64,000 nt of DNA from Polyangia bacterium (lineage in GTDB: Bacteria; Myxococcota_A; Polyangia; Palsa-1104; JAEUJZ01), in NCBI GenBank assembly GCA_046351595.1, contig JAXLYE010000004.1, forward strand, positions 513,219 to 577,218, given 5' to 3'. The number at the start of each line of letters is the position of its first letter. Position 1 is the stretch's first letter. The position numbers were made by a program, and so were the translations under genes. The notes beneath the pieces are model-generated. The model ran no database searches and was not told the origin of the DNA. It was given only the letters and a program-made list of their open reading frames with translations. Positions 202-20,200 of this stretch are shown here, piece by piece.

Positions 202-600
202 CGCTGCACGGCTAGCGTCCCGTCCGCGATGGAACGTCGCGGCTGCTCATGACCTGCATTGGAGAACGCGGAGTCGCGCACTGCCGCTTGCGGCTCTTCG
301 CAGTGTGCGCACCGCTGCACAGCAAGTAGTCGCGGTCCCAGGAGCTGCAGACTTTTTCGTGTCACCTTCTCCCTTCGGGGTCCGGGTCGGCCCAGGGCTA
401 GCGTATGGTCCGCGATGGAACGTCGCGGCTGACTCAGACCGGCACAATACAAGGCGGTGGGCCGAGTCGCCGCCAGCGGCTCTTCGCAGCTCGCGAGCGA
501 GCGCTTCGGCCCATCCCCGACCGGGTGGTCGCGAGCTGACGCCTTCGGCTCGAAGCGACTCGGCCACCGCTGCATCGGAAGTAGCGCCGGCCCGGACCCC
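202..600 (+). repeat. Diverged tandem duplication of about 190 bp (copy 1 about 202-345, copy 2 about 385-600). Each copy carries the hairpin CCGCGA-TGGAACG-TCGCGG (227-245 and 413-431) plus the shared blocks GGCTCTTCGCAG and CACCGCTGCA..AAGTAG..CG. It lies immediately upstream of, and overlaps the 5' end of, the retron RT ORF. Candidate retron msr/msd ncRNA region.
   Basis: Direct sequence comparison of the two segments: GCTAGCGTCCCGTCCGCGATGGAACGTCGCGGCTG against GCTAGCGTATGGTCCGCGATGGAACGTCGCGGCTG. The inverted-repeat stem is present in both copies. The position relative to the RT gene matches retron architecture. Confidence 0.35.
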
Positions 601-2160
601 GAGCTTCTCTGTCCGTCCGCTTTCTTCGTCGTCGTGTCGGAGGCCGTCGTGAGCCTGGCTGCGCTCCTTCTGAAGCTGCGCCCCCTGGTTTCGGGAGAGC
701 GCGTCAACTGGCCGCAGGTGTTCGCGCTGCTGCGCGGCAAGTCGGATCTGGCCGAGTACGAGGTCGCGCGCCTGTACGTCGCCCGCGTCGCCTCGCCGGG
801 CCTGCACCGCATGGCACGCAGCGTCGACCCGCGCGAGCGGGTGCAGGCGGCCAAGGGGATCCGCCTGTGCTGCACCCGGCAGGAGGCGGCGACGCTCCTG
901 CGCCCGCTGGTCAAGGACGTCGACAGCCACGTGCGCAGCGCCGCCCACGCCTCGGTGCGCGCGCTCGCGCTAGAGGACGTGGCGCTGCCCGATACGCGCT
1001 TCAAGCCGCCGCGCCGGCCCGACACGCTGCGCCCCGGCGGCTGGAACCCGACCGGCTGGTCGTTCGGTCTGTTCGGCCGCCGCTACTGGTACTGGAGCCA
1101 GAGCCCGAGCGCGAAGAAGAAGGGCGCGAAGAAGCCGGACCTCAAGAAGCTCGGTGTGCCGCCGCTCGGCTCGGTCGACGAGCTCGTGAAGTGGCTGGGG
1201 CTGGGCACGGCGAAGGACCTGCGGCGCTACATGCGGCCCGGCGCCGGCCCCGGCTCGCCCTACGTGCAGTTCACCATCCCGAAGTCGAGCGGCGAGCCGC
1301 GCACCATCACCGCGCCGCGCGCCTCGCTCAAGAAGCTGCAGCGCCGCATCCTCGACGAGATCCTGGCCAAGCTCGAGCCGCACGAGGCGGCGCACGGCTT
1401 CGTCCGCAGGCGCTCGGTGCTGAGCAACGCGCGGCCGCACCAGGGCGCAAAGCTCGTCGTGAAGATGGACCTGCGCGACTTCTTCCCGAGCATCTCGTAC
1501 AAGCGCGTTACCGGCCTGTTCCAGAGCTACGGCCTCGGCGAAGAGGTCGCGGCGGCGCTGGCCGGCCTGTGCACGCACCGCGCCGTGCTGCCCGACGGGT
1601 TCGTGCTGTGGCCCGGGGTGCTGCCGCAGGGCGCGCCGACCTCGCCGGCGCTGGCCAACCTCTTGTGCCGCCGGCTCGACGCGCGCCTCTCGGGTCTGGC
1701 CCGCCGCGCCGGGGCCGCGTATACGCGCTACGCCGACGACATGACGTTTTCGTGGCGGGAGCCGCCCAGCGCGGTCGCCGCCTCGGCCGAGCCGGCCGGC
1801 AAGAAGCCCGGGCTCGGGCGCTTCCTGTGGTGGGTCGAGCAGGTCTGCCTGCAGGAGGGCTTCGTCGAGAACGCCACCAAGCGCCGGGTCCTGCGCGCCT
1901 CGGGCCAGCAGCGCGTCACCGGCATCGTCGTAAACTCCGGGCTCTCGGTGCCGCGGCAGGCGCGGCGGCGGTTCCGCGCCCTCTTGCACAACTGCAAGGT
2001 CGCGGGCGTGGCGTCGCAGGCGCGCGGCCGCTCCGACTTCCGCGCGTACCTGCTCGGCTACGCCTCGTACATCAAGATGGTCCACCCCGCGCTCGGCGCG
2101 CGCCTCTTGCGCGAGGTCCGCGAGGTCCTGCGCAGCGACCGCGGCCCGACGGAGTCGTAG
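457..2160 (+). CDS. Retron-type reverse transcriptase with an N-terminal extension of about 230 aa (Mx162/Mx65-like). The RT domain starts near 1150-1230; the true start codon may be downstream of 457.
   Basis: Translation carries YVQFTIPKSSGEPRTITAP (the start of the RT finger), the NARPH (NAxxH) motif, QGAPTSPALANL (QGxxxSP), YADDMTF (YADD catalytic motif) and VTGIVVN (the retron VTG motif). A long N-terminal extension matches myxobacterial retron RTs. The RT gene is convergent with the downstream gene. Confidence 0.8.
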   Translation: MGRVAASGSSQLASERFGPSPTGWSRADAFGSKRLGHRCIGSSAGPDPELLCPSAFFVVVSEAVVSLAALLLKLRPLVSGERVNWPQVFALLRGKSDLAEYEVARLYVARVASPGLHRMARSVDPRERVQAAKGIRLCCTRQEAATLLRPLVKDVDSHVRSAAHASVRALALEDVALPDTRFKPPRRPDTLRPGGWNPTGWSFGLFGRRYWYWSQSPSAKKKGAKKPDLKKLGVPPLGSVDELVKWLGLGTAKDLRRYMRPGAGPGSPYVQFTIPKSSGEPRTITAPRASLKKLQRRILDEILAKLEPHEAAHGFVRRRSVLSNARPHQGAKLVVKMDLRDFFPSISYKRVTGLFQSYGLGEEVAAALAGLCTHRAVLPDGFVLWPGVLPQGAPTSPALANLLCRRLDARLSGLARRAGAAYTRYADDMTFSWREPPSAVAASAEPAGKKPGLGRFLWWVEQVCLQEGFVENATKRRVLRASGQQRVTGIVVNSGLSVPRQARRRFRALLHNCKVAGVASQARGRSDFRAYLLGYASYIKMVHPALGARLLREVREVLRSDRGPTES

Positions 2161-2164
2161 CTCG

Positions 2165-3124
2165 CTACTCCGTGCTGCGCGGGCTCGCGGCCAGCGCGGC
2201 GCGCAGCGCGGCGAGCTCCTGCTCGTTCTCCGCGAGCAGCCGATCGCGCTCGGCGCGCTCCTGCAGCAAGAGCTCGATGTGCCGCTGGCTGCGGCGCAGC
2301 TTGTCCTCCAGGCGCTTGCGCTGGAAGAACTCCGGGATGCGGGCCGCGGCCTCGCGCGCGGCGCCCTCTTCGTGTGCGCCGGCGCGGTACATGCCAAGGT
2401 GCTCGGACAGGCGCCACGGCGGCGACATGATGAAGCGGCAGGCCGCGTGGCCGGCGGCGCGGCAGGTGATCTCGACGGCGGCCAGCGGCAGGCCGAAGCT
2501 CTCTTCGCACCAGCCCGAGGAGTACCCCGCGTTCATCGCGCACACCGGCTGGCTCGCCTGCCGACCGCGCCGGATCCACGAGTCGGCCTCGAACGAGTAG
2601 GGGTGATCGTAGATCAGGTAGTAGTTCTCGTTGGGCACCACGCGGCTGCTCGGATCGATGCGCACCTTTGCCCAGCCCGAGAACGCGAACTGCACCGGCC
2701 CGATCGACAGGCGCTCGACGGGCTCGGTGATGCCCATGTGCGCGTGGAAGTGGCGCGCGTCCGACTTGCCGATGGCGTGCCCGAGATCGAACAGCAGGTT
2801 GGCCGCGAGCTTGCGCGCCTCGTGCTCACTGCCCTCGCTGTAGATGCCGGCTAACAGGTCCGTGAACTCGAGCGACATGGCGCCGGCGCGCATCAGGATG
2901 TAGCGCTCGCCGGAGACCTCGAGCGTGCCGTGCGCGGGGTCGTGGCGCAGGCTGCCGAAGTAGCGCCGCGCGTACTCCTCGGCCTTGCGGAACAGCGGCG
3001 CGAACTGCGGCGGGACGTCCACGGTCTCGACGGAGTCGACGGAGTCGGGGGCAGGGGAGGGGCCGCCCGACTCGTGCGGCTCGTGCGGCTCGCGGGGACG
3101 GCTCGGATCGTGGCTCGAGGTCAT
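2165..3124 (-). CDS. V4R / XylR-N-like ligand-sensing domain protein with a coiled-coil C-terminus. Its start overlaps the stop of the upstream cyclase gene by 4 bp (ATGA).
   Basis: Clean ORF with good codon usage. Resemblance to activator-of-aromatic-catabolism / 4-vinyl-reductase domains (GERYILMRAGAMS...LLFDLGHAIG, and a Cys-containing C-terminal half GWCEESFG...CRAAGHAAC). Translationally coupled to the 3121..7206 gene. Confidence 0.45.
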   Translation of the reverse strand: MTSSHDPSRPREPHEPHESGGPSPAPDSVDSVETVDVPPQFAPLFRKAEEYARRYFGSLRHDPAHGTLEVSGERYILMRAGAMSLEFTDLLAGIYSEGSEHEARKLAANLLFDLGHAIGKSDARHFHAHMGITEPVERLSIGPVQFAFSGWAKVRIDPSSRVVPNENYYLIYDHPYSFEADSWIRRGRQASQPVCAMNAGYSSGWCEESFGLPLAAVEITCRAAGHAACRFIMSPPWRLSEHLGMYRAGAHEEGAAREAAARIPEFFQRKRLEDKLRRSQRHIELLLQERAERDRLLAENEQELAALRAALAASPRSTE

Positions 3125-6100
3125 CGCAGAAGCTCCGTGTGCAGCGCCTGCGCGGCGCGTCCGTCATGGCTGTCGGCGAGTCCGCTGCAGCGTACGAGCG
3201 TCTGCTCGAGCAGACCCGCGGCCTCGGCGCGGTTGCCCTCGGCGCGCCACAGCCGACAGAGGCTGGTGGCGGCGCGCAGCTCGAACAGGCGCGCCTGCTG
3301 GCAGCGGGCGATGTCGAGCGCGCGCAGGAACAGATCCTCGGGCGCGCCGTCCAGCGGATACTCCAGGTAGGCGCCGCGGCTCTTTTGGCGCAGGACCTCG
3401 CCCTGCACGCGCAGTACCTCGGCCGCGGCGAAGCGCTCGCCGTTGGCGTTCATGCGCTGCACCGCGTCGGTGATCGTTGCCAGCGCGGCGTCGGGCTGGC
3501 CGCTCTCCAGCTCGAGCTGCGCGATGATCGCGAGCAGCATCGTCAGCGACAGCTCGGAGCCGACCTTGCGGCGCGCGCTCATCACCGCCTGCATGCGCGC
3601 GATGCCGGCCGGCGCCTGCCCCTCTTTCGCCTGCACCCAGCCGCCCAGGAACTCGGCCTGCAGCGCGACGTGCGGGTAGCCCTGCTGCGTCGCGAGGTGT
3701 TGTAGCTGCTGCGCCAGCTCGCGCACCGTGGGCACGTCCTGCAGGCCCTGCGCGAAGACCCCGGCCGCGAACATCGCGAAGGTCAGGCTGTAGGGGTGGT
3801 TGATCTCGCGCGCGCAGGCGACGGCGCGTTCGTAGACCGGGCGCGCCTGGGCGACGTGGCCGAGGTACCACAGGCAGTGCCCGAGGTAGCCGCCGCACAT
3901 CACCTCGAGATCGAAGCCGTACAGGTACGCCAGGCGCTGGTGGCGCTCGCGAAGGTAGCGGCGCAGCAGCGACTCGGCGTGCGCGCGCGCGGTGGTGAGC
4001 TCGCCGAGGAAGAAGCAGGTGATGTGCAGCGCCGCGGTGGCGGCCAGCGCCGCGTCGGAGTCCGGATCGCCCTGGCCCTCCTGCTCGAGCCGCAGCGCGT
4101 AGTCCCGCGCCAGCCAGATGCGGCCGCGCGTGATGTTGAACGTCCACAGCCCGAACAGCGTCGGCAAGAGCTCCGGCGGGCGGCCGGCGCCGCCGTCCCG
4201 CTCGACCCGCTCGCACAGCGCCAGCGAGCGCAGGAGCGCCTGCTCGGTCTCGGGCGCGACGAAGCCGCGCACCGCGGAGAGCGCGATGGCCTGCGGCGCA
4301 CGCAGCGCCAGCTCACGCCCGGCCTGCGTCGCGCTCTCGGGCAGCCGCGCGAGCAGGGCGAGCCCGCGCTCGAACAGCGCGATGGCCTCGCGCGAGGCGC
4401 CGCTGTGCAGCGCCTGCAGGCCGGCCCGCTGCAGCGCGTCCACCGCCTTGTCCAGCTCCTCGCGGCTGGCGTGCGGGTGATCCGCGGCCTGGCTGTAGTG
4501 GTGCGCGAGCAGCGGGTAGATCTCGCCGGCGCGGTGGCTGGCGACGCCGCTGGCGCTGCGCTCGTACCAGGCCGCGACCTCGAGGTGCAGCTGGCGGCGC
4601 TGCGCGAAGGCCAGCGTGTTGTACGCGACCTCCTGGATGATGATGTGCTTGAAGCTGTACGTGAGCTCGTCGGCGGCGAGCCGCGAGGTCAGGTCGTGCC
4701 GCTCGAGATCGTCGAGGTAGCCGCGCAGGTGCGGGCGATCCGAGGCGATGGGGTGGACGCTGCTCAAGAGCGGGTGGAAGAAGGTGCGGCCGACGACGCT
4801 GGCGACCTTGAGCAAGAGGTGCTGCGGCGGGCGCAGGCGGTCGATGCGGCTCAGCACCACGCCGTGCATGGTGGTCGGCAGGCGCAGCGCGCGCAGCTCC
4901 GCGAGCGTGCGCTTGAGGTGGCAGACCCCGGCCTCGACCCGGAACGCGCCGGCGTCGTGCAGCGCCGCGGCCAGCTCCTCGGTGAAGAAGGGGTGGCCCG
5001 CGGTCTGCTCGAACAGGAAGTCGACCAGCGGCGGCGGCGGCTCGGCCCCGCCCAGGCGGTCGCGCAAGAGCGCCACGACGTCGGCGCGCGGCAGCGGCTG
5101 CAGCACGAGGAGCAGCGCCTGCGGATCCGCGCGCAGGCGCTGGTACTCGGCGAGCGTCGCGGCGTCCGCGATGGCCGCCGGCGGCCGGCTGGTGATCACG
5201 AGGAGCAGCCCCGGCACCTCGCGGCGCACGCGGTGCAGGAGCGCCCACGACGCCGAGTCGAGCCAGTGCGCGTTCTCGAGCAGGAGCAGCAGCGGGCCGG
5301 GCGCGCGGGCGAGCATACGCGCGAGCAGCGCCTGCCGCTGCTCGGAGTGGGCGCGGCTGGCCACGGCGCGCGTCCACTCGCCGTCCGGATCGTCGAGGTC
5401 GAGGCGCAGCACCGGGCCGAGCAGCGCGAGCTGGTCCGCGTACTCGGGCGCGAGCTGCACGAGCCGCTCGCGCAGGAGCTGGCGCACGTCCTGGTTCAGG
5501 TCTGGGCGCAGGTCCTGGGCATCGGCCGGAGCGCCGCTCGTCGTCCGCGGGGCCGGCAGCCGGAACAGGGCGCGGAAGACGCTGGCCCAGGCGAAGTAGG
5601 CGGTCGTGCGCTCGATGGCGTCGCCGGTGCCGCACAGCGTGGTGATGCCGAGCCGCTCGGCGTGCGCCAGCACCTCGGCGATCAGGCGCGACTTGCCGAT
5701 GCCGGCCTCGCCCTCGATGAGGACGCAGCCGCCCGCCGCCTGGGCGCTGAGCGCGCGCAGGCGCTCGACGATGCGCTCGAGCTCTCCGTGGCGGCCGACC
5801 ATGCGATCGACGAAGTGCTCGGGCGAGGGCGGCGCGACCGGGCCCGCGGCGGCGAGCGGGACGTGCGCGGTGATCGGCTCGGCCTTGCCCTTGACCTTGA
5901 GCGCGCGCGAGCCGCCGAAGCGGACGCCCGCGCGCGCGGCCTCGTACGACGGCGCGTCGCACAGGATGGGCAGGGCGGTGCTGGCGGCGGCGCCCATCAG
6001 CCGCGCCGCCAGGTTGACGACGTCGCCGAGCACCGTGTACTCGCGGCGCTGCTCGTTGCCGATGGTGCCGCAGAAGGCGTGGCCGGTGGCGACGCCGATG

Positions 6101-7206
6101 GCGCAGCGGCCGCTCCCGCGCTGCAGCACGGGCTGACAGGCGACCGCCGCGCGCACGCCGCGCAGCGCGTCGTCCGGGTGCGACAGCGGCGGCAGCCCGA
6201 AGACCGCCAGCAGCATCACGCCCTTCTCGTCGACGTGCAGCTTGTTGATGCTGCCCTCGTGCTGGCCGATGATCGCCTGCAGCTCGGACACGAGCTCGGG
6301 CGCGCGATCGCCAGCGCCCGGGGCCGCGGCGGCCTGATCGTCGAGATCCGGCAGCAGCGCGAACAGCACGGTCACGCGCCGCAGCTCGCCGAGCCAGCCG
6401 CCCTGTCCCGCGTCCAGGCGATCGAGCACCGCGTCCGGCAGGCAGGCGCGCAGCGGCGCCACCATCTCCGGCCGCAGCGCGACCCGGGCGCTCGGCGCGA
6501 CCGGCGGCGCCACGAGCTGCACAAGGCGCACGCCGCCGTCGACGGGCTCGGCGTGTCCGCGCGCCGCGATCTGCTCCCAGGCCGGCGCCGCCAGCGCCAC
6601 CTGACCCGGCTGCGCGAGCGGGCACAGGAGGCTGGCCTGCTGCAGGCCGGCGCCGGTGCACACGAACTCCCAGCGCCCGTCCCCGCCGCCGAGCTGGCGC
6701 AGCACCACGTCACCCAGGCCGATGCCGATGCGCATGGACAGGGTCACGCCGTGCACCGGCCGCGCGCCCGCGAGCGCCGCCTGCAGCGACAGCGCGCAGC
6801 CCGCGGCCTGCGCGACCGCGTCCGCGCTGCCGTCGTCGCCGTCGCCTAAATCACCCGCCGCCGGCACCCGCCACAGCGCGATCAGCCCGTCGCCGGCGAA
6901 CTTTACGACCTCGCCGCCGTTGGCATCGATGCGATCGATAATCTGGCCGAAGTAGGCGTTGAGGGTCGCGGCCAGGAGCTCGGCGCCGACCTCGCCCTGG
7001 CGGCTCAGGCGCTCGGTCAGCGCGGTGAAGCCCGAGATGTCGGCCAGGAGCACCGCCGCGCGTTGCCCCAGCCGGATCGGCGCGGCGGGCGGCTCGGGCT
7101 GCGCAAGGTGCCGGATGTACTGGAGCGGGACGTAGCTGGCCAGAGTCTGCAGCTCCGCGCTCGCACCGGCCGGGTCCTGCTCTTCCTGCCGCGGGGCTGC
7201 TGACAT
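3121..7206 (-). CDS. Large signalling protein with two class III adenylate/guanylate cyclase domains, an AAA/STAND-like ATPase and C-terminal TPR-like repeats.
   Basis: First cyclase domain: LLADISGFTALTE...VVKFAGDGLIALW. Second cyclase domain: HVDEKGVMLLAVFGLP...GVATGHAFCGTIGNEQRREYTVLGDVVNLAARL. Walker A: GEAGIGKSRL. Long helical-repeat C-terminus. 1361-aa ORF with ATG at 7206. Confidence 0.85.
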   Translation of the reverse strand: MSAAPRQEEQDPAGASAELQTLASYVPLQYIRHLAQPEPPAAPIRLGQRAAVLLADISGFTALTERLSRQGEVGAELLAATLNAYFGQIIDRIDANGGEVVKFAGDGLIALWRVPAAGDLGDGDDGSADAVAQAAGCALSLQAALAGARPVHGVTLSMRIGIGLGDVVLRQLGGGDGRWEFVCTGAGLQQASLLCPLAQPGQVALAAPAWEQIAARGHAEPVDGGVRLVQLVAPPVAPSARVALRPEMVAPLRACLPDAVLDRLDAGQGGWLGELRRVTVLFALLPDLDDQAAAAPGAGDRAPELVSELQAIIGQHEGSINKLHVDEKGVMLLAVFGLPPLSHPDDALRGVRAAVACQPVLQRGSGRCAIGVATGHAFCGTIGNEQRREYTVLGDVVNLAARLMGAAASTALPILCDAPSYEAARAGVRFGGSRALKVKGKAEPITAHVPLAAAGPVAPPSPEHFVDRMVGRHGELERIVERLRALSAQAAGGCVLIEGEAGIGKSRLIAEVLAHAERLGITTLCGTGDAIERTTAYFAWASVFRALFRLPAPRTTSGAPADAQDLRPDLNQDVRQLLRERLVQLAPEYADQLALLGPVLRLDLDDPDGEWTRAVASRAHSEQRQALLARMLARAPGPLLLLLENAHWLDSASWALLHRVRREVPGLLLVITSRPPAAIADAATLAEYQRLRADPQALLLVLQPLPRADVVALLRDRLGGAEPPPPLVDFLFEQTAGHPFFTEELAAALHDAGAFRVEAGVCHLKRTLAELRALRLPTTMHGVVLSRIDRLRPPQHLLLKVASVVGRTFFHPLLSSVHPIASDRPHLRGYLDDLERHDLTSRLAADELTYSFKHIIIQEVAYNTLAFAQRRQLHLEVAAWYERSASGVASHRAGEIYPLLAHHYSQAADHPHASREELDKAVDALQRAGLQALHSGASREAIALFERGLALLARLPESATQAGRELALRAPQAIALSAVRGFVAPETEQALLRSLALCERVERDGGAGRPPELLPTLFGLWTFNITRGRIWLARDYALRLEQEGQGDPDSDAALAATAALHITCFFLGELTTARAHAESLLRRYLRERHQRLAYLYGFDLEVMCGGYLGHCLWYLGHVAQARPVYERAVACAREINHPYSLTFAMFAAGVFAQGLQDVPTVRELAQQLQHLATQQGYPHVALQAEFLGGWVQAKEGQAPAGIARMQAVMSARRKVGSELSLTMLLAIIAQLELESGQPDAALATITDAVQRMNANGERFAAAEVLRVQGEVLRQKSRGAYLEYPLDGAPEDLFLRALDIARCQQARLFELRAATSLCRLWRAEGNRAEAAGLLEQTLVRCSGLADSHDGRAAQALHTELLR

Positions 7207-9631: not shown

Positions 9632-9960
9632 ATGCTTCTACCTTAACGCACATCGGCGGCCGGTCCTGCTCTCCGGCCCGCGCTCTTCTCGCAAGCCGCG
9701 ATCCCGCCGCGCCGCGGCCTCGGTCCGTTCCCCCTGCCTATCAAGTATCATCCTTGCCGCCGCGTCACAAGTAGCTACGCGGCCCGGCGCTCGCGGCCCT
9801 TGCAGCGATTGCAGCAATTGCGGCGATTGCATCGGGGCGTTCGACCATTTAGGCTGATAAATGCGCCTTGGGGGGGATCGGCGTTGGCACATATGTGCTC
9901 GGCTATGTGCCTATTTTGGGGGGCGATCCGCCCATTGCAACCACGCGAAAGGAGACGAAC

Positions 9961-11241
9961 ATGTACGGCTCGCTCCTCCGTCTGCGCCTCCGGGTCGCCT
10001 CGCTGGTCACGTCGCTGGCCGCCTCTCTGGTCGCCTCGCTGGTCACGCCGCTTCTGGCCGCATCGAGCCTGGCTCTCGGCCCCGCCTGCGGGGACGGCGC
10101 GGCGCCGCTGGAGAGCGGAGCGAGCGCCCTCCTTTCCATCGGTCCCGGGAACATGAACGCTGCGGACTGGAACGGTGACTCGCTGCCGGATCTGTCGGTC
10201 GCCAACTTCCTGTCCGCCAACTTCGCGGTCCGTCTGAACGCGGGCACGGACCAGGGCCCGGGCGGCGCTACGTTCCAGGAGTCGCGGCTCTACCCGGCCG
10301 GGCTCTTTCCCTCGTTCATCGCCGCCGCGGACTTCAACCACGATAACCGCCTCGATGCCGCGGTCGTCAACGCGGTCTCGAACGATGTCTCGGTGCTGCT
10401 CGGCAAGGGCGATGGGTCGTTCCTGGCGACGCGTCAGTACCCGCTCTCCGATCCGCGGAAGCCGCTGCTCGGACTCGGCCTGGGTCCTTTTTCGATGGTC
10501 GCGCGCGACTTCAACCACGATCAGCACCCGGACATCGTGACCAACAACTCGCTGACCAACAACGTCTCGGTCCTCCTCGGAACCGGAACGGGGACCTTCC
10601 AGGCTGCGAAGACGTATCCGCTCCTGGGGCCCAAGAGCCTGGGGCTGGTCCCCTTCGCCCTCGCCACCGCCGACTTCGACGGCGACGGCAACTACGATCT
10701 CGCGGCCGGCGCGCTCAGCAGCGTCGTCATCCTGAAGGGACGCGCCGACGGCTCGTTCACCGCGGTGCGCGAGTACATGCACGGGATCGACACCGCCTGC
10801 GTCGATGTCGCCGACTTCGATGGCGACGGCAAGATGGACATCGCCGCGACGGCGACGGTGACCAACAGCTACACCATCCTGCTCGGCCGCGGCGACGGCA
10901 GCTTCACGATCAAGGAAACCCGGCCGGCCGGCGGCACCGCGCCGCAGTGCTTCAGCATCGGTGATCTCGACGGCGATCAGAAGCTCGACCTGGCCATCGT
11001 CAACACCGCGTCGGCCTCCGTCGGCGGCGCCGTCGCGGTGCTGCTCGGCAAGGGCGACGGAACCTTCGCGCAGCCCGTCGCCTATCCGGTCGGCATCCTG
11101 CCCTGGGCCTCTGCAATGGTCGACTTCAACCACGACGGCAACCTGGACGTCGCCGCGTGCAACGCCATAAATTCCTCGGTGTCGGTGCTGCTCGGAAACG
11201 GCGACGGAACGCTGCAGCCGCAGATCATGGTCCCGATGTAG
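9961..11241 (+). CDS. Secreted FG-GAP repeat (integrin-alpha-like beta-propeller) protein with about 7 repeats.
   Basis: Strong RBS AAAGGAGA before ATG 9961. Signal-peptide-like N-terminus (LVTSLAASLVASLVTPLLAAS). Repeated DFNHDxxxD...NxVSVLLGxGDGxF units typical of FG-GAP/VCBS repeats. Confidence 0.75.
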   Translation: MYGSLLRLRLRVASLVTSLAASLVASLVTPLLAASSLALGPACGDGAAPLESGASALLSIGPGNMNAADWNGDSLPDLSVANFLSANFAVRLNAGTDQGPGGATFQESRLYPAGLFPSFIAAADFNHDNRLDAAVVNAVSNDVSVLLGKGDGSFLATRQYPLSDPRKPLLGLGLGPFSMVARDFNHDQHPDIVTNNSLTNNVSVLLGTGTGTFQAAKTYPLLGPKSLGLVPFALATADFDGDGNYDLAAGALSSVVILKGRADGSFTAVREYMHGIDTACVDVADFDGDGKMDIAATATVTNSYTILLGRGDGSFTIKETRPAGGTAPQCFSIGDLDGDQKLDLAIVNTASASVGGAVAVLLGKGDGTFAQPVAYPVGILPWASAMVDFNHDGNLDVAACNAINSSVSVLLGNGDGTLQPQIMVPM

Positions 11242-11325
11242 CGGCGTGTCGGGGGCGCCGCGGTGATGCCGGCAGACAGTGCCCTGCCGCGTCGCCGCGC
11301 TGATAAGATCCGGACGGGGGTGCGC

Positions 11326-12771
11326 ATGGATCCGCGGCTGCGGCTTCGTCGCATGATCGGCGAGCTCGATCTCGATCCGCTGCGCGCGCTCGCCGATCGG
11401 ATCACCGGCGCGCAGTTCGCCGCGCTGTTTCACCCGCGCCCGCGGGAACGCGGCATCTCGCTGCACCTGGGTCCTTATACGACTCCGTATCTGGAGGGAG
11501 ATCAGGGCTCGGACGAGGCGCGGGCGGCGCGTGCCGAGCTGCTCACGCTCAAGCGCGAGCTCGAGCAGGAGCTCACGGACTTGGAGCGCCGCGCCGGACC
11601 CCTGTTCCCTTCCCGCCGCGCCGAGCTGTGCACCCTGACCGCGCAGTTCCTGCTGGCCGTCGCGCCGCGGGATCTGAGCACCACGGCGCTGCGTACCTAC
11701 GGGCTCGGGCTGATCTGGATGTTCGCGGTGGACGACGGGGTCGATCGAGTGACGGCCCGGATCAACGATCTGAACCTGCCGGGGTGCCGGATGTGGTATC
11801 CGCGCGTCGTGCAGCGGCTGGTCGAGCGCCACATCGCGAGCCTGAGAGCGGGGCTGCGCGGGCAGCCGTGCCCTGCGCTCCCGACGGACTGGCGGGAGGC
11901 CGTGCTCGTCGGGACGGAGCTGCCGCTCGGCCGGCTGGAGCGGGGGCTGCACAGCGCGCTCGGCTGGTACATGGGCAGGGGGATGCGGAAGCTCTACGCG
12001 CTGGGCGGGCTGCTGCACCGCTGCGGCCTGCTCCTGCGGGAGCTCTGCGCGCGTCTTTACAAGACCGCCCCGGAGGCGCTGCCGGGCGAGGCGTGCCAGG
12101 CGCTCGTCCGCGTCGCCGCGCCCTTCGTCAACATCCTGTCCGAGAGCCTCCTCAAGAAGGTGGACGAGGTCGCCGCGGCACCGACGAGCGCCGAGGCGTA
12201 TTACGTCCGGCACGCGCAGACGAGCGGCACGCGCATGACCTTCGAGCTCGGCATCCTCATCACCGGGCTCGATCGCCGCCTGCAGCTGCAGGCGCGCGCG
12301 GCGCTGCAGGTCGAGCGCGCGATGGAGCATGCGTATCGCTGCGTCCTTTTGGCAAACGAGAGCTGCTTCGCGCGCGACATCGGCACGGCCGAGGAGTCGC
12401 TGGTGGCGGTCCTGATCGCCGAGGCGCTGCGCGAGGCGGGGCCGGCGCCGTTCCTGGGGACGCAGCGCGCGCACGGCCAGGTGCTGCGCCGGTACGGACA
12501 TACGCCCGCGGCGTTCGCGGCGGTAAAGCGCATCTATGCCGATCTGCGGAGCCACCTCTTCGCGCTGCTCGACGCCTGCGAGGCGCTGCTCGGCACCGCG
12601 CCGCCCGACGCTGTGGCGGTCGCGCGCTGCATCGCCGAGACCCTGCTGTTGTGGGCCGTGGGCTATCACCTGCTGAACCCGACCTGCAGCCGCTACGGCG
12701 ACTCGTTTGCGGCCGTCGCGGCGGTGCTGCACGACGACTATGCGCGGTTCCGTCGCGTGGTGCGGCGGTGA
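11326..12771 (+). CDS. Terpene-synthase-like protein (class I DDxxD metal-binding motif); function uncertain.
   Basis: LIWMFAVDDGVD resembles the aspartate-rich DDxxD motif of class I terpene cyclases. Mostly alpha-helical composition. No clean NSE/DTE triad was found, so the call is weak. Confidence 0.3.
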   Translation: MDPRLRLRRMIGELDLDPLRALADRITGAQFAALFHPRPRERGISLHLGPYTTPYLEGDQGSDEARAARAELLTLKRELEQELTDLERRAGPLFPSRRAELCTLTAQFLLAVAPRDLSTTALRTYGLGLIWMFAVDDGVDRVTARINDLNLPGCRMWYPRVVQRLVERHIASLRAGLRGQPCPALPTDWREAVLVGTELPLGRLERGLHSALGWYMGRGMRKLYALGGLLHRCGLLLRELCARLYKTAPEALPGEACQALVRVAAPFVNILSESLLKKVDEVAAAPTSAEAYYVRHAQTSGTRMTFELGILITGLDRRLQLQARAALQVERAMEHAYRCVLLANESCFARDIGTAEESLVAVLIAEALREAGPAPFLGTQRAHGQVLRRYGHTPAAFAAVKRIYADLRSHLFALLDACEALLGTAPPDAVAVARCIAETLLLWAVGYHLLNPTCSRYGDSFAAVAAVLHDDYARFRRVVRR

Positions 12772-13191
12772 GGCTGCGGAACCGCTGTTCCGCGGGCCCC
12801 CAGGCGCAGCGCCGGCGAGGCCGCGGGAGAGCCCTTCGGCCCGTCGCCCCGTCTGTCCGCAGGCGCTCGACGGCGGCTTGAATTAAGAAGGCCGCGACGG
12901 CGGGGCCGGAATCTGTGCCAGGTACGCCAAGCCTGATTAAGCCGCCCGAGTTCGTTCCCACATCGGACTACGGGAGGCGCGTGTCATGAAGACAGAGAAA
13001 AGGGCTCACCCTGCGGAGCGGACATTATCGGCCGTGAGGGAACGCGGCGAATCCGGCAGCTCGTGCGCGAGTACAGATCCAGCAGCACCGGATAGCGGCC
13101 TTCCTCGGCCCAGAGGTCGTACGGAGAATGCGTACCTCACGCATTGTCCTTGGCGAAGAAGCCCGCTGCAGGCGTGCGCCGTCCTGCGACG

Positions 13192-15313
13192 CTACCCGCT
13201 GCCGGCGGTTGTCCGCGCAGCCGCTGCTTGGACGCGCAGCGATCGGAGCTCGGTCACCCAGTCACAATCAGGCGGCATCGACATGCGGACGGAGCGCCCG
13301 GCCGGCCCGCCGAAGAACGCCGTCGCCAGGATCTGACCGAGCACAGAGCTGCTACCCGTGAAGCCCTGGCTCTCTCCGCGCACCCGCTCCTGCAGCAGAG
13401 GCTCCAGGTCCATCGGCTGCAGCGTGACGACCAGCAGGTACTCCAGCTGCGCTTCGGTCGGGCGCTGCCCGTCCGCACGTACGGGCAGCTCGCGCGGGAA
13501 GCGGACCCGGATCGGTCTCCCCTCTCCGAGCCCGATCCGTCCGCTGCCGTGCGCAGCCAGCGGAGCGCTTGCCCCGCGCGGCGGATAGACCTGCCGGATG
13601 CCGGCGGCCTGATCGATCTCAAGCACCGAGACGTAGACCTCGAGCCGCGAGCGGTTGGTGATCTCCAGAGCCAGCTGCGCACCGTCTGTGACGATCGGGA
13701 GCTCGGTCGGAGCCTTGTGCAGCGCAGTCGGGTCGCCCGATCCGGGCAGCAGGTAGATGGCGAGGTCGAGCTGTCCGCGCAGCGCGCTGCGTGGGTTGCA
13801 GAGGGTGCGGACAAAGTGCCTTCGCACCAGGCGCTCCAGGTTCTTCAGCACGCCCTGCGTCTGCACGCGGCGCAGCGGCGCGCCCCAGATCTCACCGCCG
13901 TCATCGACGATGAGGAAGCAGGTGTGATCCAGCGCGCCGAGCTGCGGGGCGATATCACCGGCTCGGATGTCCTGGCGGGCCGGGACCAGGTGCACACTCA
14001 AGCGCGGCGTCTCTTTACCCGCCACCAGCCGGAGCCAGGGAGAGCTCTGGATCCCGCTCAGCAGATCCTGCAGTTCATCACGGCTGCCCTTCTGCTGCGG
14101 GACCGCCTGCAGCTGCACGACGGCACCGCCCGCGCCGGTGTGATCATAGACCGCGACCGACCACTTCGTATCCAGCGGCTGCTCGGCGAGGACCGCGCGC
14201 CACAGCGGCTCGACCGGCCCGGCGTCGTGGATCAGGTGCGCCTGCGCGCGTGTCGCATCCGACGAGATCACCCGCACCCGGGGCCGCGCGCTCGCTTCCT
14301 CGGTGAGCTCCAGGTGCTGCGTGCCGGGCGGGAACAGCACCCATTCGCTGCTCACCACGACCCCGCGCGGCTTGCCTCCGCTCAGCCAGACCGTGCGCTC
14401 TGCGGTCACGCTCTCGACCAGGACATACGGTGCGATCTCGCGATCGCTCATGTCGAACAGCACCCGCTGCCGCGCGCCTTCGATCTGGGGGTGCTGGGTC
14501 GGGATCGCTCGAGTCACCGCGCAGGCGGCTCTCTCAAAGACGTCCTGGTAGGTCGATCCGGCGGGTGCGGACAGCAGGGCCTGCGCCAGCTCATACGTCA
14601 GCGCGCCGTGGTGGATCGTCTCTCCACCATCGAACACCGCGACCTCACGCGCCTTTTCCTTCGCCAGGCATGCACCGATGTATACGTAGTGATCGCTCGC
14701 GGGCAGCCACTCAGCCTGGCTCCCGAGCAGCGGCAGCAACTTCGGGTCGATCGGCGAGGCCGGTAGCTCGGAGAGCGCGCGCGGATCGGCCGGCAGCCCG
14801 CGCTCGCCGCTGAGCACCGGACCCGCCGAGCGGTGCATGGTGGCGGAGTGGCAGCAGTCAAATAGCAGCGTGATGAAGCGTGTCTTGTTCGCCAGCCGGA
14901 TCAGCCACAGCCGTAGCTCGTCATCGGTGATGTCGCGGTTCGGGTGCGCGCCGCGCCCGCTGTCGAACGGGATCAGCGTGTCATCGAGCTTCGGGTCCAG
15001 CTTGGTCCCCTCGCGGTCTGCCATCTGCGAGCCGTGGCCGGCGTAGAACAGGACCACGACATCATCCGGCGCGGTCCGCTCGACCAGCGCGTCCAGCTCA
15101 CGCAAGATCGCCGCGCGCGTCGCTGCCTCGTTGAGCAGGAGCGTCACGCTGGAGCGCGCAAAGCCGAACCGCTCGACGAGCAGCTGCTGGATGAGCCGTA
15201 CATCGTTCACGCAGCCGCGCAGATCGTGCGACTCCAGTACGTGCCCGCTGGCGTCTACGTGGCGCAGGAAGGGATAATTCTGGATTCCGATCAGCAGGGC
15301 GTGCCGGTTCATG
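13192..15313 (-). CDS. Caspase-like (peptidase C14 / metacaspase-type) domain protein with an uncharacterised C-terminal region of about 530 aa.
   Basis: N-terminal domain HALLIGIQNY...GCVNDV...DDVVVLFYAGHGSQ (catalytic His)...ITLLFDCCHSATM (catalytic Cys). ATG at 15313. Divergently oriented from the CHAT gene across a 235-bp intergenic region. Confidence 0.8.
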
Positions 15314-15548
15314 TCTGCTCCAGTGCGCGGGTCGTCAGGCCCAGGACCCGCCGGCCGCACGTACCCAATCAGTAACCTTATTCCGTCCCCCGTTACAGTG
15401 CCGCCACGGGGGGGAGACAGCGACCGGCCTGGGGTCCGGTGTGCAGCCACCTCGCGTCGACATCGCTCTGCATTGCGAGCGGACCGCCTGACGCTGCGGT
15501 GGCTGAGTGCGCGTGGCATGGTGATTGCTTTTTTGTCGCCAGACGTTC

Positions 15549-17246
15549 ATGAGTACGACAAAACCTACCATCCTGTTCCTGTCCGCGAACCCGAGTACCA
15601 CACGGAGGCTCGAGCTCGGTCAGGAACTGGGCGCGATCAAAGAGCAGCTTCGATCCTGCGGAGCCGAGGACCGGATCGAGCTGCAGATCGAGCCGGCGCT
15701 GCGTGCGGACATGCTGCAGGCGGCCCTGCTGGGACACCGACCGCAGATCGTCCACTTCAGCGCGCACGGCAGTCCCGAGGGAGAGCTGGAGCTCGGCGGC
15801 AGCGGCAGCGAGGATCTGCAGGCCGTCTCGGCCGCGCAGCTGAAGCAGGTATTTGAGGTCCTGGGCAAGGGCATCCTCTGCGTAGTGCTCAACGCCTGCT
15901 ACTCTGAGAAGCAGGCAGAGGCCCTGCGCTCGGTCGTTCCCTGCGTGGTGGGCATGTCCCGCGCCGTCAGCGACCCTGCCGCGCAGACCTTCGCCGCCAG
16001 CTTCTACCAGGCGCTGGCCCGCGGAGAGAACGTCGCCACCGCGTTCAAGGTCGGCTGCAATCAGATCGGATTTACGCCCGCGGCCGAAGAGCAGACCGTG
16101 CCGCGCCTGCTGGAGCATGAGGAGCACGGCGCCGAGCACCTGTATCTGTTCCCTCCCGAGCCCGTGAGCGAGCCGCCGGTCAGCCCCAGGCGGGAGTCCG
16201 GAGGCAGCGCAGCGGCTGCGCCAGAGAACGCGAGCTGGGAGGGACTCCTCCGGATGACAACCATCCGTGAGCACCTCTCGAGCTTTCGCAGCCTGTTCGC
16301 CACGGTCAGCGAGCAGATCCGCGAGCTGGCCTGGCACAAGAAGCTGCACGATCTCTTCCAGGAGCTCAACCACCCCTATCACAACCTGAAGAACGAGCTG
16401 GCCCGGTGTGGCGACACGCCCGATTCCTGGAAGAAGAACAAGAAGTACCTGGTAGGTCATATCAGCCTAACCAAGCTGAAGGGTCTTGAGATCCTCGCCC
16501 ACATCGAGTCCGCGCCGCCGCGCGTAAAGACCGTGTTCGAGGGGCGCAAGCGCATCCTGGCCAGCGCCATCCAGATGCTGGAGAAGGCCCAGAGCAGCGG
16601 CGACATCCGCGTGCTGAACACGGCCGTGTACGAGCGGCTGGCCAAGTCGCTTGAAAATGATCCAGCGGTGGCCAACCAGCACCTGGTCGAGATCGCAAGA
16701 GGCCTGGATCCTCAGCTGGTGCGGGTCGTCGATGCGCTCCAGAGCGCAAATTCAAAACTCAAGACCTCGGTCCACACGGACTCCCGGGTCCAGTTCCTGG
16801 GAGAGCAGATCCTGGAGCTGTCCAGCCTGCGCGAGAGCCTGTCCTGCCTGGTCGGTCAGCACGACTGCTGGCAGTCCTTTGACACCTACCTCCGCCCGGT
16901 GATCTCGGCGACGACCGTACCCGAGTTCAGATCGGGCTGGGAGCTGATCCGGATGGTCGAGCCCACCATCTTGACCCCGGAGGTCGAGACCGAGAAGTGG
17001 GCGGCTGACCTGAAGAAGAGGAGCGCAGACATCGAGCAGGCGCTGGCCGCGGAGAAACCCGCGGAGGGCTCCGCCAAGGCGAGCGATGAAGACTGCAGCG
17101 TCTTCGGGCTTAATCAGGAGTACTTCGACATCGCCACCATGCGGTTTGAAGAGATCGACAAAGCGCTGCTGCGCGTGTGCGAGAAGCTGAAAGAAAAGGG
17201 CGACCTGTTGGACGTCGCGGTGAGGATGCTCGATGGAAAACCGTAG
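15549..17246 (+). CDS. CHAT-domain (caspase-fold protease-like) protein with a helical C-terminal region.
   Basis: N-terminal block ILFLSANP...IVHFSAHG (His)...VVLNACYS (Cys) matches the conserved CHAT dyad pattern. The stop overlaps the next gene's start (ATGGAAAACCGTAG), indicating translational coupling. Confidence 0.7.
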   Translation: MSTTKPTILFLSANPSTTRRLELGQELGAIKEQLRSCGAEDRIELQIEPALRADMLQAALLGHRPQIVHFSAHGSPEGELELGGSGSEDLQAVSAAQLKQVFEVLGKGILCVVLNACYSEKQAEALRSVVPCVVGMSRAVSDPAAQTFAASFYQALARGENVATAFKVGCNQIGFTPAAEEQTVPRLLEHEEHGAEHLYLFPPEPVSEPPVSPRRESGGSAAAAPENASWEGLLRMTTIREHLSSFRSLFATVSEQIRELAWHKKLHDLFQELNHPYHNLKNELARCGDTPDSWKKNKKYLVGHISLTKLKGLEILAHIESAPPRVKTVFEGRKRILASAIQMLEKAQSSGDIRVLNTAVYERLAKSLENDPAVANQHLVEIARGLDPQLVRVVDALQSANSKLKTSVHTDSRVQFLGEQILELSSLRESLSCLVGQHDCWQSFDTYLRPVISATTVPEFRSGWELIRMVEPTILTPEVETEKWAADLKKRSADIEQALAAEKPAEGSAKASDEDCSVFGLNQEYFDIATMRFEEIDKALLRVCEKLKEKGDLLDVAVRMLDGKP

Positions 17247-20200
17247 CGAAGGCGCGTCGAGTAGTGATTCCGTCTCCTCCGAGATGGCTGCGCTCAAGGC
17301 GCTGCTGGCGCATATCGAAGAAGCGCTGAAGACGCGGGCCGTCATTGACGCCATGTCGGCGCTGCGCGACGCCCAGGTCGCGCTCAGCGAAGCGCGCCAG
17401 CGCGGCGGAGAGACCCCGGAGTTCGTCGTGCTCCTGGAGCGGCTGCTGGCAGTGGGCCGGGCGCTCGGGGCGCTCCTGGACAGCTCCAGAGAGCGCGGGC
17501 ATGCGCAGAGCCTCCTCAGCTTCTGGGGCAACCTGCTGCTCCATGCCGGCCGCGAGAGCCCGGACATCACGCTCGCGGATTTTGATCGCGAGCAGCTCCC
17601 GACTCTCGAAGACAAGCAGTGTCCCTACCTGGGCCTGGAGACGTTCCACGAGGAGGACAGCGGTCGCTTCTTTGGCCGCAACAGGGTCATCGAGAAGCTG
17701 GAGAACACGCTGGCGCAGGGGCGCGTCCTGGCGGTGCTGGGCCCGTCGGGGAGCGGCAAGTCCTCGGTCGTGCTGGCCGGGCTGGTCCCGCGCCTCTGCA
17801 AGCGCCTGGGCATCAGCGCGCTGATCATGGTCCCTGGGACGGAGCCGGTGGCGGCGCTGCGCGCGCTCGGGATCTCGGCGGAGCAGACCCGTCCCGTCTT
17901 CCTGGTCGTCGACCAGCTGGAAGAGATCTTCACCCTGTGCGACAGCGAGGCGCTGAGGCAGCAGTTCTTCTCGGAGATCCTGGCGCTGATCCGCAGCCCG
18001 ATCGAGCACAAGGTCGTCCTGACGCTTCGCAGCGACTTCGAGGAGAACCTGGCGGAGTACAAGGAGCTCAACGAGCTCCTGCACGCAAAGAATCACCATG
18101 AGGTCATCGAACCGCTGAGCAAGGACGAGCTGCGCGAAGCCATCGAGCGACCGGCCGCCGAGGTCGGGCTGCGCTTCGAGGCCGGCGTGGTGGACAGGCT
18201 CATCGACGATGTCGTCGGACAGCCGGCCAGCCTGCCGCTGCTCCAGTTCGCGCTCCTCAAGCTGTGGGACATGCGTGATCACAACCGCATCACGCTGGCT
18301 CTTTACAACAGCCTGGGCGGTGCGCGCGAGGCGCTGTGCAACTGCGCGGACGATGTCTACCAGCACCTGCAGGAGGAGGACAAGAAGACCGCGGACAAGG
18401 TGCTGCTTCTGCTGGCCGTGCCCGTGGCGACGCGACGGGAGGTGACGCGCAGCCGTGTCTCTTTGTCCGAGCTCTACGGCTCTCTGGGAGAAACCCGAGA
18501 GCGCGTGGATCGGATCCTTGCTTCGTTCGAGCAGGCGCGCTTGCTGCGGCGGACGCCGAAGCGGGTCAGCGGCCAGGCGGAGCCGCCGCCCGACAAGGTC
18601 CTGATCGAGTTCGCGCACGAGGCGCTCGTGCGCAACTGGGATCGCCTCGAGGAGCAGATCGACTCCGTCCGCGAGTGGCTCGGTCGCAAGCGCGAGCTGG
18701 AAGCGCTGGCGCAGAGCTGGATCCGCCGGCAGAAGGAGAGCCCGGACGCCGGCCTGCTCGGCTCCGAGGAGGTCCGCAGCGCCGAGCGCGACAAGCAGGA
18801 GATCGAGCGTCTCGGGATCCCGGTGGACGCAGGGGTCGGCCGGCTGATCGAGGCCAGCATCGCGGCCGTTGACCGAAAGGAGCAGGAGCAGGAGCGGGCC
18901 CGGATGCTCGAGCAGGACCGGCTCCGTGAGCAGGCGCTGGCGCAGGAGAAGCTGGCCCAGAGCGAGCGGCTGCGTGCGGACCAGGCGGCGGCGGCTGCGG
19001 CGAGCGCGAGCGTGAGCCGGCGGCGCCTGCAGTGGGCCACGGCGCTGCTCGGGGTCGCGCTGACCCTGGCGCTGGGCTGCTTCCTCTTCTTCCTCTGGTA
19101 CAAGGACAAGGTGCAGAAGCAGACCGCACGGTCCGAAGCGGACGCATGGATCGAGCAGGCCCGCCAGCTCCTGAACCCGGTGCCGACACCGGACCGGAAC
19201 CCTGCCATCCTCGAGCTCAACCGCCTCTACACGGCGCATCCCGACGATCCGCTGCTGCCGGACCTGTTGGCGGACGTGCGGCGGCGCATGTTCGACGGGC
19301 TCCACACCATCCTGGTCGGCCACGAGGAGCCCGTCTCGGGCGGCGTATTCAGCCCGGACGGACTCTCAATCGTCACGGTCGATGAGAAGGGCAAGCTCGT
19401 GCTCTGGGACGTCGAGTCCGGTGGCCAGAAGAGCTCCGTGCCCGCAAAGGCAGCGCGCAGCATCACCTGGAGCCCGAGCGGACGGTCCCTGGCTGCAGGC
19501 TGCGCAGAGGGCCGCATCCAGATCTGGGAGGTGGACCAGCAGCGCTTCAGCCGCAGCCTGCCCGCACCGCAGCCCAACGCAGACAACGGCGCCATCACGA
19601 GCCTGACCTACAGCCCGGACGGCCGCAGCCTGGCCGCTGCGGGCTGGCCCAGCGTGGTTATCTGGAGATTGGACGAAGCGGGGACCGCGTGGCGGCCGGT
19701 GCGCGCGCTGCGCGTGTCGGACGAGCCCCTCGGCTCCCAGCCGACGGCCCCGACCGAGGCCCTGCCGATGGCCGACCAGCGCGTACAGCGTGCGGCGGAG
19801 CCGCGCGCCCCCAGCGCCGACAAGCCGCTCCAGGTAGCCAAGTCCAACCCTCCGCTTGAGCGCACCCCCGTGAGCTACGCCGCCTGGAGCCCCGACGGGC
19901 AGATCCTTGCCACTGCGTGGGACAGCTCGCAAGCGGTGAGGCTCTGGCATGTTCGGACCGGTGGGCTGCTGAAGACCGTCGCACACCTCAGCAACGTCCG
20001 CGGCGTCGCCTTCAGCCCCGACGGGCGCAGCTTCGCGACGATCGGGGAGGACGGCGTGGCGCGCCTGTGGATCACCAGCAGCGGCACGCCGGCGCGGCTC
20101 AGCCGCCGCGGACATGGCGGTGAGGCATTCGGCGTGGCCTGGAGCCCGGACGGGCGCCAGCTCGTCACCGCGGGCCGCGACCGGACGGCACGGGTGTGGG

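Follow-up and report, generated by a model that had tools for sequence, protein, structure and literature searches.

Here we analyze a 64,000-nucleotide stretch of DNA from a Polyangia bacterium (contig JAXLYE010000004.1, positions 513,219 to 577,218; the window in what follows) and, within it, the gene P0001 on the reverse strand, which encodes a caspase (orthocaspase) whose protease domain is followed by a long C-terminal tail. The gene is a typical representative of the bacterial caspase-like proteases that stand alone, a very large family for which a CHAT protease, not an NTPase, is the most frequent recurring partner. By analogy with PCaspase of Haliangium ochraceum, we hypothesize that the protein is an executioner zymogen that would remain latent until cut by a CHAT protease, with the tail in a regulatory role; to this chain of events as a whole we give an even chance. 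Taken by itself, the idea of a free effector protease whose C-terminal half is regulatory is reasonable, and the tail probably represents a regulatory module integral to the protein.

The Pfam family Peptidase_C14 (PF00656; clan CD) covers residues 3-279 of the protein (E = 1.5e-23; 84.1 bits against a cut-off of 21.4), and the metacaspase-like domain as a whole spans residues ~1-288. In an alignment of 103 family members, His93 is kept in 103 of 103 and Cys154 in 102 of 103 sequences, and Cys154 is aligned with the mutated catalytic cysteine of AtMC4 (6W8R) and Yca1 (4F6P). Asp37 (in C34-V-N-D37) and Asp152 are invariant and lie at the positions of what we take to be the acidic S1 pocket of metacaspases (TbMCA2 structure); therefore, cleavage after Arg or Lys is expected. 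Judged from these residues, the protein is probably a catalytically competent metacaspase-like protease. The top Foldseek matches of the domain are metacaspases 4 and 9 (AtMC4 and AtMC9, E ~4e-13), and the nearest solved folds are these two plant enzymes, GSU0716, MALT1 and Yca1. Like calcium-binding metacaspases, the family has a conserved acidic motif, D99-R-E-G...D110-x-T-I-x-P-x-D117. Directly behind the catalytic cysteine lies a loop that carries Arg161 and Arg171 (each in 103/103) and Arg178 (102/103), and residues 158-168 of this loop are the sole part left disordered in the AlphaFold2 model. The spacing from His to Cys is 60-61 residues in most of the family, and it is 62-71 in 15 of the ~200 sequences for which both motifs were found. 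The NCBIfam model caspase_w_EACC1 (NF047832) aligns with residues 5-160 only and scores 35.5 bits, far below its cut-off of 140. An original prediction, made from the nucleotide sequence of the window, had described a caspase-like protein with no fused NTPase, and indeed no NTPase domain is found in the 706 residues by Pfam or NCBIfam.

The same prediction assigned 530 residues to the C-terminal region. Because the Pfam C14 match covers residues 3-279, the tail is shorter than this: the region without a Pfam match runs from residues ~289 to 706 and comprises ~420 amino acids. That the region carries no recognizable motif is correct for the protein itself, in which Pfam gives no match to DUF4384 (PF14326) at E < 0.01, but not for its relatives: aligned family members score 20-28.6 bits for DUF4384 in the third tail domain, and two of them, P0056 (27.8 bits) and P0129 (28.6 bits), pass the Pfam gathering score of 27 bits. 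The AlphaFold modelling of the C-terminal region that had been suggested as a check was carried out and gave a confident three-domain fold. For the whole protein, modelled from the family alignment, the mean predicted local distance difference test score (pLDDT) was 88.8 and the predicted template modelling score (pTM) 0.78, and for residues 289-706 alone the values were 89.9 and 0.85, respectively. In the model, the beta-barrel takes up residues ~293-392, the alpha/beta domain residues ~405-505 and the Ig-like sandwich residues ~510-700. The high pTM of the whole protein suggests that tail and protease are rigidly packed together.

No solved structure was found to resemble the tail. A profile of the family run against the chains of the Protein Data Bank (PDB) retrieved only metacaspases and GSU0716, in both cases via the protease domain, and no match to the tail. 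A Foldseek search with the tail gave none at E <= 1e-3; it returned only generic immunoglobulin (Ig)-like sandwiches (the AGS-C domain, RhoGDI and pilus chaperones) and the N-terminal barrel of F1-ATPase, the best match (E 1.8e-3, TM score 0.47) being 9ard, a Pycsar cyclase whose AGS-C sensor domain is Ig-like. The three tail domains are evenly conserved, with a mean pairwise identity of 37-40%, while the two halves of the protease reach 55-58%. Such even and moderate conservation is more in keeping with a structural or regulatory module that is part of the enzyme than with a surface that diversifies to recognize targets. Since the tail is uniformly conserved and never occurs apart from the protease, diversifying target recognition is unlikely; of the two roles originally envisaged for the C-terminal half, regulation is the most likely and target recognition drops back. 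Within the third domain, Arg645 is kept in 86 of 103 sequences, is followed by Gly in the present protein and starts an indel-rich loop of low model confidence, which makes it a second candidate cleavage point besides the loop after the catalytic cysteine.

How common is a free caspase with such a tail? A tail-only profile, run against 1.84 billion representative proteins, gave 4336 matches at E <= 1e-3, of which 1922 reached E <= 1e-10. The tail directly follows a C14 domain or its truncated remnant in all of the best 150 of the 4336 matches, and 30 matches with a tail seemingly near the N-terminus turned out to be truncated gene calls that start inside the caspase domain. The unit of caspase and tail, ~690 residues long, is present in thousands of proteins from at least eight phyla. 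The original prediction had taken bacterial caspases to be mostly fused to STAND NTPases or repeats and the present layout to be unusual, and these numbers contradict it. Variants of the family gain domains at either end, namely a TIR/SEFIR domain or 270 extra residues at the N-terminus, or DUF7379 at the C-terminus, and protease and tail are never split. One such variant is P0243 (851 residues), in which the N-terminal TIR/SEFIR domain is fused to caspase and tail. About 30 of the 80 homologous loci described below encode a version of ~1,000-1,400 residues (e.g. L010, L014 and L047), and those that were scanned bear DUF7379 after the tail. In P0049 this domain lies at residues 900-1172 and has a weak PGAP1-like match; because of its motifs VHGTFS and CHSRGG, we read it as a putative alpha/beta-hydrolase. 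The fusions echo the caspase-activated alpha/beta-hydrolase zymogens, cut between Arg and Gly, that were reported by Evans et al. (PMC12642450). A search of plasmids retrieved only distant full-length relatives (~25% identity) with uninformative context.

The gene company of the family was examined in 80 homologous loci from GTDB, using iterated-profile searches within 10 kb of the caspase gene. These loci span Chloroflexota, Cyanobacteria, Gemmatimonadota, Acidobacteriota, Rhodothermales, Gammaproteobacteria, an actinobacterium and a Methanoperedenaceae archaeon; H. ochraceum is not among them. A CHAT gene is present in 39 loci, and in 21 of these it is the immediate neighbor on the same strand. 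A Ser/Thr kinase occurs in 24 loci (usually a kinase-TPR protein of ~950 residues encoded immediately upstream) and an nSTAND1 gene in 16, and many loci contain extra C14 genes. Where at least 5 kb was available on both sides, 30 of 38 loci contain a CHAT gene, an nSTAND1 gene or a further C14 gene. The profile counts agree with Pfam scans of the directly neighboring genes. The modules attached to the CHAT partners vary (TPR, Big_2, FGE-sulfatase, SIR2_2, NACHT, or a mini-CHAT fused to nSTAND1), TPR-CHAT genes being frequent, and the clusters of Acidobacteriota are accompanied by genes for ECF sigma factors. In L082, whose caspase shares 44% identity with the present protein, the order C14-C14-C14-CHAT-nSTAND1 is found in one operon. 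Mini-CHAT-nSTAND1 fusions occur in L020, L077 and L079, with that of L020 starting 19 nucleotides after the caspase gene, and protease-NTPase fusions are encoded beside relatives in L041, L084 and L020; another relative is followed by a C14-nSTAND1-WD40 protein of 1625 residues. The original prediction named two observations that would speak against it, and only one of them was made: the gene is indeed often found away from the NTPase, given the 16 of 80 loci with nSTAND1 and the unrelated flanks of the closest orthologue (see below).

In the type III-B CRISPR/SAVED-CHAT cascade of H. ochraceum, a cA3-activated SAVED-CHAT protein cleaves and so activates PCaspase (Hoch_1323), and active PCaspase degrades many proteins, leading to abortive infection (Steens et al., bioRxiv 10.1101/2023.06.23.546230). 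PCaspase is described as a C14 protease with the dyad H79/C146 and a "C-terminal putative regulatory domain", and its active site was modelled as autoinhibited. It is encoded in a cluster together with SAVED-CHAT, a sigma factor (PCc-sigma), an inhibitor (PCi) and a kinase-TPR protein (PCk) (bioRxiv 10.1101/2023.06.23.546230). It is among the most abundant protease-linked modules (Evans et al., PMC12642450). The protein studied here is likewise a stand-alone C14 protease, with its dyad at positions 93/154 as compared to 79/146, with a putative regulatory C-terminal domain, a CHAT gene alongside and a host from the same class, Polyangia; across its family, kinase-TPR genes and, in Acidobacteriota, sigma-factor genes recur nearby. 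The role of a broad-specificity protease of the second tier, published for PCaspase, would then apply here as well.

On this model, the enzyme would be held inactive by its tail and by the loop of conserved arginines behind the catalytic cysteine, both of which would offer a surface for docking or cleavage. A sensor-coupled CHAT protease would make the activating cut, and the freed caspase would cleave after Arg in many proteins, leading to growth arrest in the form of abortive infection or programmed death. In the window, the caspase gene is divergent from a two-gene operon for a mini-CHAT protein and an nSTAND1-WD40 NTPase, with 236 bp separating the start codons of caspase and mini-CHAT and an overlap of 14 nucleotides between the two operon genes, in line with the free protease encoded divergently from a STAND NTPase operon that had been predicted. 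The candidate activator would be this mini-CHAT protein, driven by oligomerization of the NTPase. We tentatively propose, as a possibility that we ourselves regard with some doubt, that the STAND NTPase and the separate mini-CHAT could form an apoptosome-like initiator that cuts a free PCaspase-type executioner, which would amount to a two-tier cascade with a protein sensor instead of a CRISPR or CBASS nucleotide, and in which the tail, with its DUF4384-like last domain, would serve both as zymogen lock and as docking platform for CHAT.

Several observations weigh against our hypothesis or against its local version. The tails of PCaspase and of the present protein are likened by published description, not by sequence, and the His-to-Cys spacing of PCaspase is 67, compared to the usual 60-61 in the family. 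The sensor differs, being nSTAND1-WD40 with a separate mini-CHAT and not a cA3-binding SAVED protein, and a CRISPR locus is absent. Genes for a kinase, a sigma factor or PCi are not found beside the caspase gene in the window, and the arrangement with mini-CHAT is divergent, not operonic. The closest relative, in L081 (3646..5775, corresponding to 15319..13190 of the window), shares 80% protein and 83.7% nucleotide identity, and yet the similarity is limited to the segment from 7 nucleotides before the start codon to 2 nucleotides after the stop codon, with both flanks unrelated; in the 3.6 kb available upstream of it there is no CHAT or NTPase gene. Conversely, the only full-length relative of mini-CHAT (36% identity; L089, 10001..15692) is again followed by nSTAND1-WD40 with a 14-nucleotide overlap, but a metallophosphoesterase and an unknown protein take the place of the caspase upstream, and no C14 gene is found within 10 kb of that operon. 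Mini-CHAT and nSTAND1-WD40 therefore look like a conserved two-gene core with exchangeable neighbors, and the caspase gene behaves as a mobile single-gene cassette, at whose ends we found no repeats or marks of mobile elements. The adjacency of caspase and operon may be functional, and the case for a link to the NTPase is weak.

The island-like position of the 80% orthologue would suit an autonomous stress or cell-death orthocaspase that activates itself, for example by calcium-dependent autoprocessing at the conserved Arg residues, and whose tail would serve oligomerization or substrate binding. Calcium-dependent autoprocessing is known from plant and cyanobacterial metacaspases. The conserved acidic motif D99...D117 resembles that of the calcium-binding enzymes, Arg161, Arg171 and Arg178 suit the predicted P1 preference of the protease itself, and 8 of the 38 well-flanked loci lack CHAT, nSTAND1 and extra C14 genes. 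DUF4384 has moreover been listed, without function, as an accessory domain of 23 cyanobacterial orthocaspases, which were catalogued with no defence context (PMC8283722). Against such autonomy stand the strong and repeated enrichment of CHAT, STAND and kinase genes nearby across phyla and the existence of operonic fusion variants (TIR-C14-tail and tail with alpha/beta-hydrolase), and activated PCaspase needs no cofactor, a point that is relevant if it belongs to the same family. We consider the autonomous enzyme doubtful, though the most likely of the alternatives.

The tail could also be involved in ways other than as a lock opened by cleavage. If it sensed a small signalling molecule, the protease would be turned on by binding and not by cleavage. 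The AGS-C sensor domain, as the top Foldseek match of the tail, points in this direction, as do the TIR/SEFIR fusion in P0243, the SIR2_2 domain of one CHAT neighbor and the free, promiscuous and Arg-specific caspase of type IV Thoeris (PsCaspase), which aborts infection and whose C-terminal domain has been hypothesized to bind the TIR-made nucleotide N7-cADPR (Rousset et al., bioRxiv 10.1101/2024.10.24.620036). However, the match to 9ard is weak and generic for Ig folds, no nucleotide-binding fold is recognized, and an adjacent cyclase or TIR gene is lacking in the window and in most loci. The TIR-associated Tianpeng caspase TipB has its dyad at His81/Cys131, and its spacing of 50 as compared to 60-61 indicates a different caspase lineage, if the Thoeris caspase resembles TipB. 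A ligand-gated protease is unlikely in our view. Even less probable, and in fact very unlikely, is a tail that acts as payload, in which a cut in the Arg645 loop or in the linker would free a toxic or membrane-active fragment, comparable to gasdermin, EACC1 or Pepco. The position of Arg645 (86/103, followed by Gly in the present protein) at the start of an indel-rich, low-confidence loop would allow such a cut, and the DUF7379 versions resemble the hydrolase zymogens of PMC12642450, but the tail is made up of common soluble beta folds, never occurs on its own and has no similarity to known pore formers in the PDB profile and Foldseek searches. Inspection by eye of the sequence and the modelled secondary structure, with no dedicated predictor run, revealed no amphipathic or transmembrane features.

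The PCaspase-type zymogen that we favor can be compared to further systems. In Craspase (Cas7-11 with the TPR-CHAT protease Csx29), a sensor-bearing CHAT protein also cleaves a specific partner, Csx30; DUF4384 is often fused to proteases and in some Csx30 proteins makes up the C-terminal domain (Kato et al., bioRxiv 10.1101/2022.08.17.504292). What is cut in Craspase is a regulator of a sigma factor, whereas here it would be a second protease; the trigger of Craspase is RNA-guided. LcCaspase/LcHydrolase (PMC12642450) and the EACC1 systems, in which nSTAND1 has been reported (Kaur et al. 2020, PMC7159879), share STAND- or repeat-linked caspase-fold proteases and exchangeable effectors, but there the caspase takes the upstream position, and its effector is something other than a protease. 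Metacaspases and cyanobacterial orthocaspases (AtMC4, 6W8S; Yca1, 4F6O; TbMCA2, 4AFR) correspond in fold, catalytic motifs, acidic S1 pocket and predicted Arg/Lys specificity; the full three-domain tail is lacking or has never been described in them, and metacaspases rely on calcium and autoprocessing instead of a partner CHAT protease. The type IV Thoeris caspase is also a free caspase-like executioner with an uncharacterized C-terminal domain, but it is activated by a TIR-made nucleotide and not by a protease, and the two tails are probably unrelated; no TIR gene was found by Pfam among the window neighbors that were examined, and in the family TIR is seen only as a rare fusion (P0243). Finally, in the paracaspase MALT1, which is among the longest Foldseek alignments, a caspase fold is followed by an Ig-like domain (Ig3) with allosteric regulation. 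As the tail here has three domains and the match has a root-mean-square deviation of ~20 Å, this is an architectural analogy only.

If our hypothesis is true, the PCaspase-type executioner would be a widespread and portable output module, wired to many sensor-CHAT proteases (TPR, NACHT, nSTAND1, SIR2 and SAVED), and not a curiosity of one CRISPR locus. A tail that locks and releases the protease would explain how a bacterial caspase cascade is controlled, and would bear on the origin of the initiator/executioner logic in cell death. The interest that remains lies in the possible STAND-triggered cascade of two proteases and in the unstudied 420-residue tail itself, which occurs in thousands of proteins and has neither a Pfam model that covers it (apart from DUF4384 in the last domain of some relatives) nor a solved structure.

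The coding status of the caspase open reading frame (ORF) is beyond doubt, because the G+C content at third codon positions is 0.83 (the window has ~70% G+C) and hundreds of full-length homologues exist (673 database homologues, most of them full length). Its product is identical to the NCBI record 'MAG: caspase family protein [Polyangia bacterium]'. The frame extends from stop to stop over 13192..15519 (-). We take the ATG at 15312 as start codon, since a GGAG lies 5 nucleotides upstream of it, the homologues share this start position in the family alignment and the nucleotide similarity to the 80% orthologue sets in 7 nucleotides before it; the same three points rule out a longer frame of 775 amino acids from 15519. 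The end coordinate first given for the gene, 15313, was thus one base too far, and the length of 706 residues is borne out. No signal peptide or transmembrane segment is present, the N-terminus being the first strand of the fold, and we read the protein as cytoplasmic. The features are listed in Table 1.

Table 1. Coordinates of the caspase gene, its protein domains and the adjacent divergent operon in the window
Feature	Coordinates	Strand	Basis
Caspase (orthocaspase) gene P0001, 706 aa plus stop codon	13192..15312	-	ORF scan, Pfam, homologues
p20-like half of C14, residues 1-157; His93 in GHGS, Cys154 in DCCHS	14842..15312	-	Pfam, alignment, structure alignment
Linker after catalytic Cys, residues 158-200; candidate processing/pseudo-substrate loop	14713..14841	-	model, alignment
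p10-like half of C14, residues 201-288	14449..14712	-	Pfam, model, Foldseek
Tail domain 1, residues ~289-395, small all-beta barrel; motif GxxxGxxxGSxW (Gly313, Gly317, Ser322, Trp324)	14128..14448	-	alignment, AlphaFold2, Foldseek
Tail domain 2, residues ~396-508, alpha/beta; motifs DPVPQLG, NLEKxARYR	13789..14127	-	alignment, AlphaFold2
Tail domain 3, residues ~509-706, DUF4384-like Ig beta-sandwich; Arg645, invariant Trp685 in last strand	13195..13788	-	Pfam of relatives, AlphaFold2, Foldseek
Divergent intergenic region, 236 bp between caspase and mini-CHAT start codons	15313..15548		sequence scan
Mini-CHAT protein, 565 aa; candidate initiator protease	15549..17246	+	Pfam, PADLOC, alignment
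nSTAND1 NTPase with WD40 propellers, 1652 aa; candidate sensor/switch	17233..22191	+	Pfam

The mini-CHAT protein consists of a caspase-fold domain (residues 1-175), in which the dyad His73/Cys117 is conserved in relatives, and a helical region. Its PADLOC match to SAVED_CHAT is limited to the CHAT part of the profile (positions 300-472), and it has no SAVED domain. An idea that the three proteins might be joined by a shared EAD/Death-like adaptor ("EAD pairing") was dropped because residues 1-135 of the nSTAND1 protein have no similarity to the caspase tail or to the C-terminus of mini-CHAT. In the intergenic region neither a consensus sigma-70 promoter nor repeats were detected, and scans for promoters, terminators and repeats at the ends of the caspase gene found none. 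Downstream of the caspase gene lie convergent, unrelated genes for a protein of 502 residues without Pfam match and for an FG-GAP protein; an ORF of 985 codons on the opposite strand (9775..12732, -) is a shadow ORF, the true genes of that segment being encoded on the plus strand.

A 661-codon ORF of uncertain start (22136..24121, +) overlaps the nSTAND1-WD40 gene at the 3' end of the latter. It has no match in Pfam, NCBIfam, PADLOC or the sequences of the PDB, is not conserved in the related operon of L089 and possibly encodes an operon-specific effector. Small conserved proteins are also encoded at some of the homologous loci, and none of them has a Pfam or NCBIfam match. One of ~130 residues is encoded between the caspase and C14-nSTAND1 genes of gammaproteobacterial loci (L028, 9604..10119; L041, 11856..12338; L045, L056, L065, L069 and L072); by eye it has 3-4 hydrophobic helices and is a candidate membrane effector. 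Proteins of 143-165 residues are encoded just upstream of the caspase gene and after a kinase-FGE-sulfatase gene in L083 (9516..9947) and L088 (9502..9999), and their pattern, again by eye, is like that of a stand-alone DUF4384-type sandwich.

Farther away, ~11 kb from the caspase gene, the window encodes a reverse transcriptase of 575 residues (433..2160, +; Pfam RVT_1, 1.3e-17; PADLOC RT_XIII, 2.4e-110), possibly of the defence type, which adjoins a gene for a V4R/XylR_N regulator (2165..3163, -). A protein of 1361 residues (3121..7206, -) combines an adenylate/guanylate cyclase domain with AAA_16 and has weak PADLOC matches to PycC (Pycsar cyclase). On the other side, a sedolisin-like protease with a Pro-kumamolisin activation domain and an S8/S53 domain is encoded at 24819..26435 (-).

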